From the sequence record OR424388.1: 64,000 bases of DNA; one strand, written 5' to 3'. The position numbers and the translations under genes were made by a program. Under the pieces are notes generated by a model. It was not told the origin of the DNA and did not search any database. It worked only from the letters and a program-made list of their open reading frames with translations. This DNA is from Escherichia phage HEMP5. This document shows, piece by piece, positions 2,641-44,179 of the stretch (the first letter of the stretch is position 1; every line of letters begins with the position of its first letter).

Positions 2641-3267
2641 TTAACCTCTATTCATAAAAGCATTAAAAATTTGGTCATCAATAGAAACATCTACTTTAGA
2701 CTGTTTTTCTGATGGTAATTCATATCCACATATTACAATTTTGTGATCAATATCAAAATACACAGAAGCAATATGATTAATGATGTTTTCAGTAAAGTCT
2801 AAATCAACATCAATATCTTTTTGACCACAGCCCAAAGGATAAATAATGCGAGTAATTCGATTATCTTTAACAAAGATTCCACCGACATACTCTGTGCTGC
2901 GTTTAAAGTCTACACGCCAACGAAATGAAAAATATTCAGGCTCTTTATGAGCTCTGCTCATAGGACACAACGAGTAACTAGAATAAGAGATGTCAAATCC
3001 TACGCCTTCAATATGAGCCAAAGTATCATGATTAAACCAATTATAATCGTACGCCAAATCCATTAGATTATAATATGTAAAAGGCACCGGATTAACGTCA
3101 TTAATCACAAGCATGTAATTAGCAACTGCTATAATTTCATTGTTTTTAACGAATACAAACCGTGATTGATGCGAATGACCTGGACCCGCGTTTTCACGAT
3201 TAATGATATAACACTGGGCACCTTTATATTTGTATGTATCTTTGCACTTGTGCATTTGATAGAGCAT
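2641..3267 (-). CDS. hypothetical protein at the T4 61.2 position (possible AdfA-like anti-DarT factor by synteny)
   Basis: 208 aa; TAATG overlap with sp; assignment to the AdfA family rests on position and recall only, no motif confirmed. Confidence 0.7.
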   Translation of the reverse strand: MLYQMHKCKDTYKYKGAQCYIINRENAGPGHSHQSRFVFVKNNEIIAVANYMLVINDVNPVPFTYYNLMDLAYDYNWFNHDTLAHIEGVGFDISYSSYSLCPMSRAHKEPEYFSFRWRVDFKRSTEYVGGIFVKDNRITRIIYPLGCGQKDIDVDLDFTENIINHIASVYFDIDHKIVICGYELPSEKQSKVDVSIDDQIFNAFMNRG

Positions 3268-3560
3268 TATTCACCTACCACTTCAGCGATGATATTTTTA
3301 TTATTAAAGTTTTTATCGCAATACAGAACATAATTATACTGCATTACACCACCAGACTTAAGCTGTTTTTGCACTTCAGCTTTCATTTCGGGGCGATCGC
3401 GCTCAACGATATTCATAATATCTGCTTCAATTTGAGTTTCAACCTCAGTCTGATCCGCAGTCATAGACCATTCGCACAAATCTTTATCATAGCCTGCCAT
3501 GGCAGGTTGAGCAGCGCAAGAAGCTAAAGCAAAAATTGCAGCAAAGATAAATTTTTTCAT
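3267..3560 (-). CDS. sp: Spackle periplasmic protein (inhibitor of gp5 tail lysozyme; superinfection exclusion)
   Basis: 97 aa; signal peptide with lipobox-like LASC; GAGG RBS; matches recalled T4 Sp length and sequence. Confidence 0.85.
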   Translation of the reverse strand: MKKFIFAAIFALASCAAQPAMAGYDKDLCEWSMTADQTEVETQIEADIMNIVERDRPEMKAEVQKQLKSGGVMQYNYVLYCDKNFNNKNIIAEVVGE

Positions 3561-9145: not shown

Positions 9146-9526
9146 TCACTTAGTCAAATTTTTTACACATGAATTATAAGAATTCACTACATACTCCATC
9201 GGAGCATTTTTACCAGTACGCCATTGGTAATTATTAGCCCAATTAGCCCAAATTTCGGCGCAGTAGTTTTCAATTTTTTCTTCGCGTGTAATTACATCAG
9301 AATTACGATATGCTTGAGCAGATTCATCTGGACGAATAGCTTCGTCAAAATTCGCCTGCATTTGTTCGACTGTTTGCTTTGGAGCTTCTTTATAACACTT
9401 GACATTAGGATTATAAAACTTGCTTGAACAGTTTACAATTTTTCCTGCATCAGACTGATTTACTACCGGTCCTTGAGCTACACAACCAGTAAGACCTAAT
9501 GCAATAACCAAAATAGCGATTTTCAT
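9146..9526 (-). CDS. putative lipoprotein
   Basis: 126 aa; signal peptide with lipobox LTGC; GAGGAAA RBS. Confidence 0.7.
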   Translation of the reverse strand: MKIAILVIALGLTGCVAQGPVVNQSDAGKIVNCSSKFYNPNVKCYKEAPKQTVEQMQANFDEAIRPDESAQAYRNSDVITREEKIENYCAEIWANWANNYQWRTGKNAPMEYVVNSYNSCVKNLTK

Positions 9527-24598: not shown

Positions 24599-24814
24599 TT
24601 AGGCCTTTTTATCAAGAACAGCATTCAGTTTGTTAGTAATTTTATCCAGACGCTCATTGAACTCGCTAGAAGATAAGCCTTTTTCTGGAGAAATTAAGCT
24701 AATCACGAAAAATATAGCAATAAAAGGAATAAGAAAAATAGCACCAACTGCCATAAACAAAAAGAACGTTACAGTTGTAAGAAAATCAGCTAAACCTTTA
24801 CGAAATTTATACAT
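24599..24814 (-). CDS. small membrane protein
   Basis: 71 aa; one long hydrophobic segment. Confidence 0.6.
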   Translation of the reverse strand: MYKFRKGLADFLTTVTFFLFMAVGAIFLIPFIAIFFVISLISPEKGLSSSEFNERLDKITNKLNAVLDKKA

Positions 24815-33910: not shown

Positions 33911-34318
33911 TCACTCAATTTCAATTTTACTAAATATACAGAATAAGATGGAACAGACTATATAAGCACCACACACAGATTGAACTAATACCATTCCAAA
34001 GAACCAAACAATATTATCAAACAATGTCTGTTTTACGTCGAAAGGACGTAAACTTACAGTAATATTATCACCTTTTTCTATTGAAGAATACATCTCTGGG
34101 GAAATATATTCACTAAATCTATAACCATCTTTGAGTTCATATACGGCAATAAACGATAAACTAGACCCTTTTCCTTGTGTTCCTGTAATGGTATTAACTA
34201 CAGTAACATCATAATCTTTATAATGCATATAATCATTAATTGCGTAATAACCATATGCAATTACTACACATAAACAACATATCAATAAATTCAATCTTTT
34301 AATTATCAACTGTTTCAT
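33911..34318 (-). CDS. membrane protein
   Basis: 135 aa; N- and C-terminal transmembrane helices. Confidence 0.7.
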   Translation of the reverse strand: MKQLIIKRLNLLICCLCVVIAYGYYAINDYMHYKDYDVTVVNTITGTQGKGSSLSFIAVYELKDGYRFSEYISPEMYSSIEKGDNITVSLRPFDVKQTLFDNIVWFFGMVLVQSVCGAYIVCSILFCIFSKIEIE

Positions 34319-40023: not shown

Positions 40024-40410
40024 TTATTCGAGGGAAAGAAGATATTTGCTCTGGTAAAACATCCCAGTAATATCATCTATCGTGCTTTGAATAGCTGGAG
40101 GCATTTCTTTATAAATGCTGTTAGATTGGTCTAGTATGTGATCAATCATTCTAATTGTGTCGGTAGGAAGTTTACTGGCATCTGGAATAGAAGGCGTGTA
40201 TTTTCTACCAGAATACCCCAAATATTGCTCACCAAATTTATCAATCAAATCTGGCAACTCAGAGAAAATAAAATCGTATGCTTTGTGTCTAGCATAACTT
40301 TTAGTTTCAAAATGCGCAGAATGAAAATAAGCTTGTGCAGCCATTAATAAACCTAAGTATTCATCTGCCTTTGAAGGTTTTCCACTTTGTGAAAAGTCGC
40401 TGAATTTCAT
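40024..40410 (-). CDS. hypothetical protein (rI.-1 position)
   Basis: 128 aa; ATGA overlap with the rI stop. Confidence 0.75.
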
Positions 40411-40700
40411 TCAGTCTCCAATTTAATGTTCATAATTCTAGCGTATGATTGTGCCATCTCCGCGCCTCGTTCTATACATTCAAAATCGGAAGAGCACGGG
40501 TCATTTTTATAAGTCGTTCGCATAAAACTATAGAACTGTTCAGATGATTCTACGCTTTTATTTTCAAAAAGCATATAAACGTGTCTAATACCAGATTCCA
40601 TAAATTTATCAAAATGAGGATCGACATTCGCTTCAATTGGTGGAGATAAAGCAAACGCTAATCCTAGCATGGCAAATAGTGCCGTTGCTTTTAAGGCCAT
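40407..40700 (-). CDS. rI: antiholin RI (lysis inhibition)
   Basis: 97 aa; signal-anchor N-terminus; GGAGG RBS; near-identical to recalled T4 RI. Confidence 0.93.
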   Translation of the reverse strand: MALKATALFAMLGLAFALSPPIEANVDPHFDKFMESGIRHVYMLFENKSVESSEQFYSFMRTTYKNDPCSSDFECIERGAEMAQSYARIMNIKLETE

Positions 40701-42117: not shown

Positions 42118-42326
42118 AACCATGTAACCTTTAAGCAATATTCTTCTACATGCTGTTTACGACCTTTCTTATCAATAAAGGTATATTCAACGAATGTTCC
42201 AATATAGTCTTTATCTACATCATGTGGACTATTAATTGGGCATTTAGTACGGCAAATGCGTTCCCATTGACGAATAATTTCCACTTTGTTTTTAGGATCA
42301 AACGGATGCGGGTAATGTGCTTTCAT
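42114..42326 (-). CDS. hypothetical protein
   Basis: 70 aa; ATG start. Confidence 0.6.
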   Translation of the reverse strand: MKAHYPHPFDPKNKVEIIRQWERICRTKCPINSPHDVDKDYIGTFVEYTFIDKKGRKQHVEEYCLKVTWL

Positions 42327-42777
42327 AATCCACCACTATTAAATCAATATCAGGAGTAAACATGTCGATTAATTTAGAAACCTTATCCCAATCACCGCCA
42401 GCAATACCACAACCTATGCGTGGAATGTAAATTACTGGTTTAAACAAAAGGGTTTCTGCCTGTAGATTTAATTCTATCATGCAGTTTACTAAAGCACCAT
42501 AATCAAGATTAGGACCTGGTTCGTATTGTGTATACAGGTTATAGCATATACCAAATCCTGTAGGATTATGTTTAAAAACAATAGACATATCACCTAATTT
42601 ATCACGAGAACCGTACTCAGTAGTGGTTTTATCTATTTCTAAAATTTTAGGATAGGCCCTTGCTAATTGACCTGCTACACCTGAACCCATAGTATGAAAG
42701 CAGTTGCACCCATGCGCAATAATATTACCTTGAAGAAATAGGGCGACAATATCGCCCTTGATATATTTTACAATCAT
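42298..42777 (-). CDS. macro-domain protein (predicted ADP-ribose binding/hydrolase)
   Basis: 159 aa; macro-domain-like motifs KGDIV...IIAHGCNCFHTMGSGVAGQLA and IPRIGCGIAGGDW; ATGA overlap upstream. Confidence 0.8.
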   Translation of the reverse strand: MIVKYIKGDIVALFLQGNIIAHGCNCFHTMGSGVAGQLARAYPKILEIDKTTTEYGSRDKLGDMSIVFKHNPTGFGICYNLYTQYEPGPNLDYGALVNCMIELNLQAETLLFKPVIYIPRIGCGIAGGDWDKVSKLIDMFTPDIDLIVVDYESTLPASV

Positions 42778-43115
42778 CTAGTACTCAATCCTCGATTATA
42801 AGAATCTACCAAACGGTCAACCATTGAATGACAAGCGGCTTTATCTTTCTCCTCCGCAACTGAACATTCTAAGGTATTCCACTTTTTAGCATATCGTTTT
42901 AATAAAGTATCATTTTTGTATCTGCTTGATTTATCTCTTTCTCCGTCTTTATATGCATATATTAATTTCTGCGCAAATTCAGCTTGGCATGCTTTATTTT
43001 TCCCGCAATAATCCGCGGCAGTACGGTTTACATACTCTCTAATTTCAGTATATGATGTATTTGCTAACGCAGAAAATGAAATTAATCCTATACATAAAAC
43101 CAAAATTTTAGTCAT
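42774..43115 (-). CDS. secreted protein (signal peptide)
   Basis: 113 aa; N-terminal signal peptide MTKILVLCIGLISFSALA; 4 Cys. Confidence 0.7.
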   Translation of the reverse strand: MTKILVLCIGLISFSALANTSYTEIREYVNRTAADYCGKNKACQAEFAQKLIYAYKDGERDKSSRYKNDTLLKRYAKKWNTLECSVAEEKDKAACHSMVDRLVDSYNRGLSTR

Positions 43116-43653
43116 TTACTATTTCCAGTAGTTTATTATTTTTAAGGTAGTTAGCCTTTTCTAGGACTTCAGAAGCATATTTAGAACCTGCTTTAACATT
43201 CCATCCCGAATTATAAGAGGATATTGCCTTTCTTATATCACCCTTATGTATATTTAACCAATAAGAAAGTTCAATGTACGCCCAGGAAGCTGAATTGGAC
43301 CGTTTATTCAACATTCTTTTTATTTCAGCATCGGTCATATTATAACCAAGTTCCTTAACTCTTGCTCGCATTGTCGGCAAATAATTTTGGAACATTCCGT
43401 AGGCATGATGCTTTGGTTTAGATTTTAAATTAACTCCGGCAGAGCTTTCTTGCCATAAAATAGCAGCCATTATATGACCTAATCCGCTCTTGTGGATATT
43501 TTTGTGTGTTTTATATTTTCCATCCTTAGAAAATTGTTCCCCGAATTGATACGCGTAACGCATGTTATCGAGTTGGACATTACTGAAAGTATGCTCGGAG
43601 CTATGCGCCATCATTGAAATGGCCAATAGACCAGCGAGTAGTGCTTTTCTCAT
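43108..43653 (-). CDS. periplasmic lytic-transglycosylase-like protein
   Basis: 181 aa; signal peptide; SLT-type motif ILWQESSAG...YGMFQ. Confidence 0.75.
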   Translation of the reverse strand: MRKALLAGLLAISMMAHSSEHTFSNVQLDNMRYAYQFGEQFSKDGKYKTHKNIHKSGLGHIMAAILWQESSAGVNLKSKPKHHAYGMFQNYLPTMRARVKELGYNMTDAEIKRMLNKRSNSASWAYIELSYWLNIHKGDIRKAISSYNSGWNVKAGSKYASEVLEKANYLKNNKLLEIVND

Positions 43654-43660
43654 GCTTACC

Positions 43661-44122
43661 TCATTGAGTTTTAATTACTGCTTTAGAAGCCTTTCCTGGT
43701 AAACGACGACTGTTAATAATTGCCATCCTGCACTGAAGTGACGGGTCTTTGAACTTCGCATTAGGTTTACAAACTGTAAATCCAAGCCAAAGATTTCCAT
43801 CTGTGATTTCTAAACGTCCAGGACGATATTCAACCCCATCAATAAAATCCTCATTAATGTCAGGACGCGGAGGCATACTTAGGAATTCATTAACTTCTAA
43901 AACATGGTCTTTTATTTTATGGAATAATTCAAAAACATATGTCTCATCAATCTCCCGTTGAATTGCACGATCAAGAAGATGTTGAGAATATTTTAGATGA
44001 AACGATGAGACCCCTGCTGCTTTTGATGCCTCACGAATCTCATTGTTAATTTGACGAAACTCCGACTCAAAGTGACGACGGAGCTTATTTCGACGGATAA
44101 AAACTTCTGTGTTGATAGTCAT
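43661..44122 (-). CDS. regB: RegB endoribonuclease
   Basis: 153 aa; near-identical to recalled T4 RegB. Confidence 0.93.
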   Translation of the reverse strand: MTINTEVFIRRNKLRRHFESEFRQINNEIREASKAAGVSSFHLKYSQHLLDRAIQREIDETYVFELFHKIKDHVLEVNEFLSMPPRPDINEDFIDGVEYRPGRLEITDGNLWLGFTVCKPNAKFKDPSLQCRMAIINSRRLPGKASKAVIKTQ

Positions 44123-44149
44123 GTTATTCTCCTCTTAACTGATAGAAAA

Positions 44150-44179
44150 ATTATACCACAGTCAAGAGGAAAAGTAAAC
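44150..44179 (-). promoter_or_regulatory. T4-early-type promoter upstream of regB (-35 GTTTAC, 18-nt spacer, -10 TATAAT)
   Basis: Minus strand; consensus elements about 25 nt upstream of the regB ATG. Confidence 0.55.

Follow-up and report, generated by a model that had tools for sequence, protein, structure and literature searches.

Vs.1 of Escherichia phage HEMP5, a lytic transglycosylase-like protein with a predicted signal peptide, and its neighbour Vs

In the T4-type Escherichia phage HEMP5, the neighbouring genes vs.1 and vs probably encode an early, exported lytic transglycosylase that remodels the host sacculus and a periplasmic partner of this enzyme, which is the reading that in our judgement explains the data best. 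The DNA analysed (OR424388.1) is a stretch of 64,000 nucleotides, referred to here as the window. An earlier note on its sequence had described two consecutive genes with signal peptides, the second of them with an SLT-type motif, and this observation was confirmed as a whole. Its interpretation stood in so far as both products look exported, the SLT-like one retains its catalytic Glu and the genomic context is early, but a specific role in peptidoglycan remodelling or in superinfection exclusion found no support and is speculation.

Locus and gene order

The interval 42774-43653 on the minus strand consists of exactly two abutting ORFs, both of them complete genes of a T4-type phage, in DNA that shares 99.5% identity with several genomes of Tequatrovirus. 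The gene vs.1 (43108-43653, minus strand) encodes a 181-aa precursor of a single-domain, SLT/GH23 lytic transglycosylase-like protein with 99% identity to T4 Vs.1, and vs (42774-43115, minus strand) encodes a 113-aa precursor with 98% identity to T4 Vs, a match to phrog_1256 (6.5e-40) and the annotation of a valyl-tRNA synthetase (ValRS) modifier. The earlier note had not identified the pair as T4 vs.1 and vs. It had placed the SLT gene second, but by transcription vs.1 is the first gene and vs the second; and what it had called a secreted protein is indeed export-like, but had not been recognised as Vs.

The first gene of the unit is the endoribonuclease gene regB (43661-44122, minus strand; Pfam REGB_T4 2e-68, phrog_1323, T4 annotation), whose Shine-Dalgarno sequence AAGAGGAGAA (44127-44136, minus strand) contains GGAG. 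Downstream of vs lies tk.4 (42298-42777, minus strand), which encodes a macro-domain protein (Pfam Macro 5.8e-8, phrog_335). Along regB-vs.1-vs-tk.4, the spacing is 7 nt between the first two genes, -8 nt between the next two and -4 nt between the last two. The Shine-Dalgarno sequence of vs.1 (GAGG, 43659-43662, minus strand) overlaps the regB stop codon, while the vs start lies inside the last vs.1 codons within the 8-nt overlap ATGACTAA (43108-43115, minus strand), an arrangement compatible with translational coupling. The 4-nt overlap between the tk.4 start and the vs stop reads ATGA.

A T4 early-type promoter-like site is located 5' of regB (44150-44178, minus strand), with TTTACT, a 17-nt spacer and the extended -10 element TGgTATAAT. 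It matches the consensus at 10 of 12 positions with the TG present, and is to be read as a consensus match alone, early-type sites across the region being in no excess (23 observed versus 23.6 expected from shuffled sequence). Between 42778 and 44150, neither the late promoter TATAAATA nor a MotA-box site was found. The proposed expression from an early operon together with regB agrees with this arrangement of one early-type promoter in front and no late or MotA-type promoter detected inside. From its position, vs.1 would be co-transcribed with regB from the early-type promoter, presumably a few minutes into infection. Since vs.1 lies behind such a promoter together with regB, we take its product to be neither the lysis enzyme (e) nor the entry enzyme (gp5).

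Signal peptides and export

Signal peptides were called by a home-made heuristic rule that looks for a basic n-region, then a hydrophobic core of 10-15 uncharged residues, and finally a cleavage site of the small-x-small type. The rule was positive for 13 of the 144 ORFs of at least 60 aa in the window, and it recovered both positive controls, Spackle and RI, T4 proteins known to reside in the periplasm. By the same rule, Vs.1 and Vs each carry all three elements of a Sec-type (type I) signal peptide, with uncharged cores of 13-15 residues. The signal peptide of Vs.1, MRKALLAGLLAISMMAHS followed by SEH (residues 1-18; 43600-43653, minus strand), is composed of MRK, the 13-residue core ALLAGLLAISMMA and the site AHS/S, with the cut predicted at AHS/SE. 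That of Vs, MTKILVLCIGLISFSALA followed by NTS (residues 1-18; 43062-43115, minus strand), is composed of MTK and ILVLCIGLISFSALA, with cleavage at ALA/N. Signal-like N-termini were recognised by the heuristic in all 28 Vs.1 homologs and in 20 of 20 and 27 of 29 Vs homologs (47 of 49 together), so that the claim of two genes with signal peptides extends to nearly all of their relatives.

Vs.1 would probably enter the Sec pathway as a 20.7-kDa precursor and be cut after Ser18, leaving an 18.7-kDa, basic and soluble periplasmic protein, and the same route is most likely for Vs. Both mature proteins are basic (pI 9.65 for Vs.1 and 9.04 for Vs) and therefore form no obvious electrostatic pair.

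Vs.1 as a lytic transglycosylase-like protein

Vs.1 matches the Pfam SLT family (PF01464) over residues 61-154 with an E-value of 4.8e-5 and 23.4 bits, a small margin of 2 bits above the gathering cut-off of 21.3, and 25 of its 28 homologs match the same family (best E 1.3e-7). The HMM search proposed in the earlier note thus yielded a family match, and both halves of the motif named there, ILWQE69SSAG and YG86MFQ89, are present. The catalytic Glu, on whose conservation the proposal hinged, is invariant: Glu69 (codon 43447-43449, minus strand), the predicted single catalytic acid/base in the context W-Q-E-S-S, is found in 28 of 28 homologs and likewise in those from Aeromonas and Acinetobacter phages, Ackermannviridae and Felixounavirus, spanning three phage families. 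Glu69-Ser70 is invariant or nearly so among the 28 homologs; G86-M-F-Q89, S-Y147-N148-S-G150 and Y159 are invariant, and the catalytic motifs are kept down to 30% identity. In the classification of Blackburn and Clarke, the family-1 motifs are reportedly G-L-M-Q, A-Y-N-x-G and a downstream Tyr, to which the last three Vs.1 segments correspond.

The AF2 model of Vs.1 (pLDDT 88.6) has a lysozyme-like alpha-helical fold that can be superposed on solved lytic transglycosylases, with Glu69 at the end of helix 59-70, and its top Foldseek matches were all lytic transglycosylases or GH23 enzymes. An hhalign comparison of the Vs.1 family profile with the single sequence of Slt70 placed WQE69S on RQE505S and YGMFQ on SGLMQ at a probability of 0.3%; we take Glu505 of the Slt70 precursor to be the catalytic Glu478 of mature Slt70. 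Searches of PDB sequences with the Vs.1 protein and with the 28-sequence profile returned no lytic transglycosylase; apart from one g-type lysozyme with a marginal E of 0.33, the matches were due to chance. Because of this negative PDB result, the narrow Pfam margin and the weak hhalign score, the assignment to the SLT family draws on profile, motifs and predicted fold jointly. On these three lines, mature Vs.1 consists essentially of the catalytic domain of a family-1 (SLT, GH23) lytic transglycosylase and little else. If it works as Slt70 and MltE do, Glu69 would serve as the single acid/base, cutting the MurNAc-beta-1,4-GlcNAc bond and leaving 1,6-anhydro-MurNAc ends.

The same family (Pfam SLT PF01464, CAZy GH23) includes the catalytic domain of E. 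coli Slt70 as well as MltC, MltD, MltE/EmtA and MltF. Vs.1 lacks the superhelical U and L domains of Slt70 and the lipid anchor of the Mlt enzymes and, unlike family-1 lytic transglycosylases of Gram-negative bacteria, has no LysM or ABC-type substrate-binding module. It differs from them further in an N-terminal helix and hairpin peculiar to its own family (residues 20-58), in being phage-encoded and presumably early, and in sharing only 13-19% identity with them. VirB1, IpgF and P19 of plasmid R1 are specialised lytic transglycosylases of secretion or conjugation machines, and EtgA of the EPEC type III system is a small specialised one encoded in a secretion cluster, whereas vs.1 has no secretion or pilus cluster around it and does not fall into this EtgA/VirB1/P19 type. 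We know of no envelope-spanning machine in early T4 infection that needs a local gap in the wall. Among phage proteins, phiKZ gp144 and the N-terminal domain of T7 gp16 are SLT-type but serve as virion entry enzymes or endolysins, which are late and have no cleavable signal. T4 e and gp5 are GH24 muramidases without sequence relation to Vs.1, in agreement with the suggestion that the new enzyme is separate from both; they too are late and lack a cleavable signal peptide, whereas Vs.1 is probably early and exported.

About 2,000 sequenced virulent myoviruses, from three families, carry a member of the Vs.1 family, and no relative turned up in 185,579 bacterial species genomes searched with patterns derived from this family. 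As a separate observation, no Asp is invariant after Glu69 in the alignment of 28 homologs, unlike in goose-type (g-type) lysozymes, which may be an indirect hint toward non-hydrolytic cleavage. NCBIfam holds no model for Vs.1 or Vs, and Pfam matches of Vs.1 to Flg_hook and of Vs to Cauli_AT were dismissed as below the cut-offs.

Vs and its pairing with Vs.1

Vs belongs to Pfam family PF26829 according to the tags of its close database homologs, in line with its phrog_1256 match. From a precursor of 12.9 kDa, the predicted mature part is a basic 10.9-kDa four-helix protein with four conserved Cys (37, 43, 84, 95), which might staple the helices. A Vs-like ORF, PF26829-tagged also in distant members, comes immediately after vs.1 at 49 of the 50 Straboviridae loci examined (46 by phmmer, 3 by inspection). 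The pair occurs without regB or tk.4 at an Acinetobacter-phage locus (L005) and at two others (L052 and L053). Because a Vs-like gene trails vs.1 in nearly all Straboviridae examined, even where these neighbours are missing, we think it most likely that Vs and Vs.1 work together in the periplasm, where Vs might be a modulator or inhibitor that prevents premature lysis by a murein enzyme made early. No Vs was found beside the Vs.1 homologs of Ackermannviridae, Felixounavirus and one Aeromonas phage, and adjacency alone is weak evidence of partnership, since synteny is the rule among T4-like genomes. An exhaustive HMM search for Vs relatives retrieved only 27 cluster representatives, all of phage-gene size, and cellular homologs therefore provide no functional hint.

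The annotation of Vs points elsewhere. It is conceivable, though somewhat unlikely, that Vs is unrelated to Vs.1 and is a cytoplasmic ValRS modifier whose hydrophobic N-terminus does not direct export (or exports just part of the protein), whose Cys bind metal and whose position next to vs.1 is inherited. Biochemistry of the 1970s, as cited in PMC8076793, links the vs product to cytoplasmic ValRS and reports that the two bind. Gene order is broadly conserved among T4-like phages, and in the model the four Cys at one end of the helical bundle could make a Zn(Cys)4 site. Mutations in vs are said to alter T4 growth on valS-ts hosts, classical work reportedly having described in vivo effects on a host with temperature-sensitive ValRS, and these effects together with the ValRS binding are a point against an exclusively periplasmic Vs. 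A cytoplasmic location is, however, at odds with a signal peptide retained at 21-25% identity with AxA-type sites and replaced by the lipobox LSGC in one clade, as well as with the persistence of the vs.1-vs pair where flanking genes are lost. In addition, the ValRS factor is said to have been put at roughly 10 kDa by Mueller and Marchin in 1977, which is nearer to the mature protein than to its precursor.

The signal peptide, the four Cys and the lipobox variant point to export; with the position of vs directly after vs.1, they suggest that Vs is a periplasmic partner of Vs.1, in conflict with the cytoplasmic label. His-tagged full-length Vs was insoluble in the E. coli cytoplasm (PMC8076793), a behaviour that fits a protein normally folding in the periplasm, without proving it.

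A more specific version of this partnership, which we rate as unlikely, holds that Vs is not (only) a ValRS modifier but an exported, disulfide-stapled four-helix protein that restrains or tunes Vs.1, the two forming a conserved periplasmic two-gene module of Straboviridae, with three genes in many relatives. The "ValRS modification" described half a century ago would then have arisen from a secondary contact or from association after lysis, unless the ORF had been wrongly assigned. The best precedent for a possible Vs function is Spackle (sp; 3267-3560 in the same window), an early periplasmic inhibitor of the gp5 lysozyme of a superinfecting phage (PMC7677548). Like Vs, Spackle is a small, helical, signal-peptide-bearing early protein of T4, and it acts on a periplasmic murein enzyme.

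Function of Vs.1

With regard to Vs.1 itself, we posit that it likely serves, while infection proceeds, to remodel the host sacculus in a limited and controlled way. It is quite improbable that Vs.1 is instead an exported non-enzyme with an SLT fold, either a peptidoglycan binder or a decoy that soaks up the host's periplasmic inhibitors of lysozyme or transglycosylase (Ivy, MliC, PliG) and so leaves the actual lysis enzyme of the phage unhindered. The invariance of all catalytic motifs including Glu69, at 30% identity and in three phage families, is what one expects of a working active site, not of a binding scaffold, and no evidence connects T4 lysozyme e with these inhibitors.

Very improbable, in our view, is an auxiliary lysis enzyme, that is, a secreted or signal-anchored endolysin aiding e and t late in infection: some records name homologs "putative lysin" (Felixounavirus) or "lytic transglycosylase", the gene lies near rIIA/rIIB in SUSP1 and tootiki, with an Rz-like spanin gene close by in SUSP1, and Vs.1 weakly matches PHROG families of endolysins and of lytic domains from virions, but vs.1 has an early-type promoter shared with regB in place of a late one, and its 13-residue core followed by AHS/S, compared with the roughly 20 residues of a SAR anchor, marks a cleavable signal and not such an anchor. 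In T4, moreover, e, t and the spanins already explain lysis. We rejected the SAR endolysin and late-lysis readings on these grounds and because the neighbours are regB, vs and tk.4 and not a holin or spanin.

The SLT resemblance of vs.1 is already known and has been in print since 2003-2006, having been published by Nolan et al. (2006), citing a report of 2003 (PMC1524935), and SLT or lytic transglycosylase naming of homologs is present in some GenBank and UniRef names. The finding adds little by itself, because the gene is catalogued and this similarity is in print. Literature searches for experiments on vs.1 led only to Nolan et al. (2006) and to the supplement of the CRISPRi-ART study. In the genome-wide CRISPRi knock-down screen of 2025, T4 vs.1 was Semi-fit with a score of 0.81 against a threshold of 0.7, a signal that is statistically not significant (K-S P 0.099), and was among five genes with relevance to fitness that were listed as of "purely unknown function" (PMC11879866); the SUSP1 homolog was Not fit. 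From these two values, the benefit of Vs.1 to the phage in the laboratory appears to be modest. A recent preprint on T4 superinfection exclusion mentions neither vs.1 nor vs.

A defined enzymatic role for an early exported Vs.1 would fill a gap in the cell-wall programme of T4-type phages, which has gp5 and Spackle at entry and e, t and RI at lysis. For Vs, label and sequence disagree, and the resolution would be either a corrected textbook annotation, affecting hundreds of phage genomes, or a protein with dual location.

Hairpin downstream of vs

At 42740-42758 (minus strand), 16 nt past the vs stop and within the first tk.4 codons, lies the GC-rich hairpin AGGGCGATATTGTCGCCCT, with a T-rich tail behind it. 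T4 and 11 other loci have exactly this sequence, but its conservation is ambiguous, since a conserved peptide of Tk.4 is encoded there as well. The 61-nt stretch that holds the hairpin folds with -14.3 kcal/mol (z -2.05), and the hairpin may be an attenuator, a terminator or an mRNA-stabilising 3' hairpin.

Identity of the gene pair

The window is a segment of a Tequatrovirus (T4-type) genome, and the 2-kb stretch around vs.1-vs shares 99.5% identity with several Escherichia phages, with 725 phage records matched. According to the open reading frame (ORF) listing, four minus-strand ORFs are closely packed, which are as follows: regB (43661-44122), vs.1 (181 aa, 43108-43653), vs (113 aa, 42774-43115) and tk.4 (159 aa, 42298-42777), the last encoding a macro domain (Pfam Macro, 5.8e-8) and sharing an ATGA overlap with vs. 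The T4 reference record also contains regB and tk.4 and describes vs.1 as 'hypothetical protein' and vs as 'valyl tRNA synthetase modifier'. Because that record gives these genes and the window proteins are 99% (Vs.1) and 98% (Vs) identical to those of T4, the two consecutive genes that an earlier note had seen at 42774-43653 are exactly vs.1 and vs, in the opposite order since vs.1 is transcribed first. The note's 'secreted protein' has a signal-type N-terminus and is Vs (phrog_1256), annotated as a valyl-tRNA synthetase (ValRS) modifier. The pair is a genuine feature whose sequence had been read correctly, and it is already catalogued in T4.

The gene order regB-vs.1-vs-tk.4 is common to most Tevenvirinae loci. 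Public records are systematically mislabelled (for example, MZ234031.1, FQ482083.1, OQ361773.1 and MN895434.1): Vs.1 homologs are named 'endoribonuclease', 'RegB' or 'endonuclease', a spill-over from the neighbour gene, and some GenBank records name Vs 'valyl-tRNA synthetase', as though it were the enzyme itself.

Vs.1 is a small SLT-type domain

The SLT-type motif reported for the second protein was borne out at the domain level. Pfam SLT matched residues 61-154 of Vs.1 with 23.4 bits, barely over the curated cut-off of 21.3, and 25 of 28 diverse homologs (best E 1.3e-7). A direct sequence search of the PDB with Vs.1 found nothing useful. An AlphaFold model built on the 28-homolog alignment was confident (pLDDT 88.6, pTM 0.83), and its top Foldseek matches were exclusively lytic transglycosylases or GH23 enzymes. 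As the alignments cover 107-149 of the approximately 163 mature residues, Vs.1 is in essence the catalytic domain alone, to which the family adds a short helix and hairpin of its own at the N-terminus.

Invariant residues of the 28-sequence alignment include W67, E69, G73, G86, F88, Q89, N90, Y147, N148, G150 and Y159. When Aeromonas and Acinetobacter T4-like phages, one Ackermannviridae phage and one Felixounavirus were added, E69, G86, Q89, N90, Y147-N148-x-G150 and Y159 were still invariant. We take these residues to be the E-S, G-L-M-Q, A-Y-N-x-G and Tyr motifs of family-1 lytic transglycosylases in the classification of Blackburn and Clarke. In hhalign, WQE69S pairs with RQE505S in the Slt70 precursor and YGMFQ with SGLMQ; in mature-enzyme numbering this Glu505 is catalytic Glu478. 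The homolog alignment has no invariant Asp after Glu69, which fits a transglycosylase better than it fits a lysozyme of the g-type. An SLT hit and a conserved catalytic Glu, the lack of either of which the note had named as speaking against its reading, are thus both present. We consider the SLT-fold assignment very probable, and real transglycosylase activity, as predicted from motifs and model, somewhat favoured.

The enzyme-family assignment was already in print about twenty years ago. All six vs.1 orthologs gave matches, at E values spanning 0.012 to 0.74, in Nolan et al. (PMC1524935), who credit the T4 genome review with earlier PSI-BLAST matches to lysozyme. 'Transglycosylase SLT domain-containing protein' is likewise an existing name on some GenBank and UniRef entries. 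The literature search found no study of vs.1 by enzymology, localisation or mutants. In the CRISPRi-ART screen of T4, vs.1 was Semi-fit (0.81 versus a threshold of 0.7, 4 guides, K-S P 0.099) and listed as one of five such genes 'with purely unknown function', while vs (0.35), regB (0.14) and tk.4 were Not fit (PMC11879866). With a score of 1.02, the phage SUSP1 homolog (agp083) stayed below its threshold of 1.2 and was Not fit. Under laboratory conditions the gene is therefore dispensable or almost so, though there is a hint that it brings a small benefit.

Predicted export of both proteins

Both N-termini are of the signal type, as claimed, with predicted cleavage at MRKALLAGLLAISMMAHS|SEH in Vs.1 and MTKILVLCIGLISFSALA|NTS in Vs. 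Each combines a basic n-region, an uncharged hydrophobic core of 13-15 residues and a small-x-small site, and neither full sequence displays a second strongly hydrophobic segment. Signal peptides were judged by a simple home-made rule, applied to homologs and to window ORFs of at least 60 aa. It was positive for 13 of 144 such ORFs and picked up its positive controls Spackle (3267-3560) and RI (40407-40700), T4 proteins known to reach the periplasm. All 28 Vs.1 homologs passed, as did Vs homologs in two sets (20/20 and 27/29); the two exceptions do not begin with the customary basic residues and could be gene calls that were cut short. That the signal is conserved at 21-45% identity is a stronger argument for export than the rule itself, and a periplasmic location of Vs.1 is likely.

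The pair as a conserved unit

We collected 52 loci around vs.1 homologs (47 from IMG/VR, 5 from GenBank; 50 Straboviridae) and used the four window proteins as queries against the ORFs found there. A Vs-like ORF abuts or overlaps the downstream end of vs.1 in 49 of the 50 Straboviridae loci (46 via phmmer, loci L048 and L053 by inspection, and L041, split by a frameshift). Only Aeromonas phage AS-gz lacks it among the T4-like loci. The precomputed Pfam tag PF26829 is also attached to distant Vs members, such as those of Acinetobacter phage 133 and Pseudomonas phage PspYZU05. Since vs.1-vs is retained without regB or tk.4 in L005 (an Acinetobacter-phage locus), L052 and L053, the pair is the conserved unit.

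In 17 of the 52 loci, vs is followed by a third signal-peptide-bearing family, X (139-147 aa, 2 Cys, 'AWEK' directly behind the predicted cleavage site; L041 3873-4292, L048 3823-4266, L053 3812-4231, L005 3321-3746 and 13 further loci). A run of three exported-protein genes, vs.1-vs-X, is therefore present in many T4-like phages. Family X is not found in the window.

Relatives of Vs.1 were detected by tblastn in 2,084 phage records, including T4-like phages of Escherichia, Klebsiella, Aeromonas, Vibrio and Acinetobacter, Ackermannviridae and Felix O1-like phages, with a signal peptide on every relative inspected. Bacterial genomes, one for each species, were scanned with a pattern and gave no relative. 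These small exported SLT domains form a subfamily that is widespread and restricted to phages. In the inspected Ackermannviridae and Felixounavirus loci, the Vs.1 homolog stands alone with no Vs-like neighbour. The Felix O1-like context also differs from that of T4. There the homolog directly follows rIIA-rIIB (SUSP1, L055 1501-2049; tootiki, L007 2501-3049) and precedes polynucleotide kinase. SUSP1 also has an Rz-like spanin gene, 1.2 kb downstream of the homolog.

Vs and its annotation

Members of the Vs family keep the signal peptide and four conserved Cys. In one clade the AxA site is replaced by a lipobox, LSGC, and the proteins are predicted to be lipoproteins (L038 3549-3872; L041 3549-3746 and 3709-3876, one frameshift-split gene). 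The AlphaFold model (pLDDT 85) consists of four helices (20-37, 41-63, 68-84, 89-111), with Cys37 and Cys43 at the first turn and Cys84 and Cys95 at and just after the third. Mature Vs is predicted at 10.9 kDa and pI 9.0. When 1.84 billion representatives were searched exhaustively with a profile, just 27 relatives emerged, nearly all of about 100-130 aa. N-terminally tagged full-length Vs formed inclusion bodies in the E. coli cytoplasm (PMC8076793). Signal peptide, lipobox clade, Cys, model and insolubility in the cytoplasm point to an exported protein. This is hard to square with the ValRS-binding cytoplasmic role cited in the same paper. Modestly new are the conservation of the pair and the exported appearance of Vs, at odds with its annotation. 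A cytoplasmic role nevertheless keeps some plausibility, because classical genetics describes vs effects in vivo on hosts with temperature-sensitive ValRS.

Expression and proposed role

An early-type promoter match close to the T4 early form (TTTACT, 17 nt, TGgTATAAT) lies just upstream of regB at 44178-44150, and the spacings regB/vs.1/vs/tk.4 are 7, -8 and -4 nt. The minus strand of 42778-44150 contains neither a late-promoter TATAAATA nor a MotA-box-plus-minus-10 pattern. Expression with regB from an early operon, as proposed, is well supported by this position. The vs start codon falls within the final codons of vs.1 (ATGACTAA), an arrangement compatible with translational coupling. On the minus strand at 42740-42758, 16 nt past the vs stop and in the first tk.4 codons, is a GC-rich hairpin followed by a T-rich tail; the surrounding 61-nt stretch has a folding energy of -14.3 kcal/mol (z -2.05), and T4 and 11 other loci have the identical hairpin. 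Termination or attenuation of the regB-vs.1-vs transcript could be its function, but this role is uncertain because the hairpin doubles as coding sequence for a conserved Tk.4 peptide. RegB could cut its own message, because the regB Shine-Dalgarno AAGAGGAGAA (44127-44136, minus) contains GGAG, its cleavage motif per the T4 record; the ribosome sites of vs.1 (GAGG) and vs (GGAA) are without it. A MotA-box-like middle-promoter pattern (TGCTTTA, 13 nt, TAGAAT) in tk.4 (42471-42496, minus) is directed towards tk.3-tk, such patterns being about four times commoner window-wide than in shuffled sequence (19 vs 4.6).

We posit that Vs.1 would be exported by Sec, its signal cleaved, and that lytic transglycosylase chemistry via Glu69 might remodel the sacculus to a limited extent in the early and middle period of infection. 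Vs may act as a periplasmic modulator of Vs.1, although we regard such a functional partnership as tentative and rather doubtful. The closest architectural analogues of Vs.1 are small signal-peptide-bearing 'specialised' transglycosylases such as EtgA, which is controlled by a partner protein. Unlike these, Vs.1 has no surrounding secretion-machine cluster. A role in superinfection exclusion, as the note suggested, is speculative; the established periplasmic player of T4 in that process is Spackle.

Signal-like or membrane-like N-termini were also seen in three other minus-strand ORFs with no known function: 9146-9526 (126 aa, lipobox LTGC, phrog_1754), 33911-34318 (135 aa, phrog_2547) and 24599-24814 (71 aa, phrog_1930). 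Together with Spackle and RI, they make this segment rich in envelope-directed early proteins.
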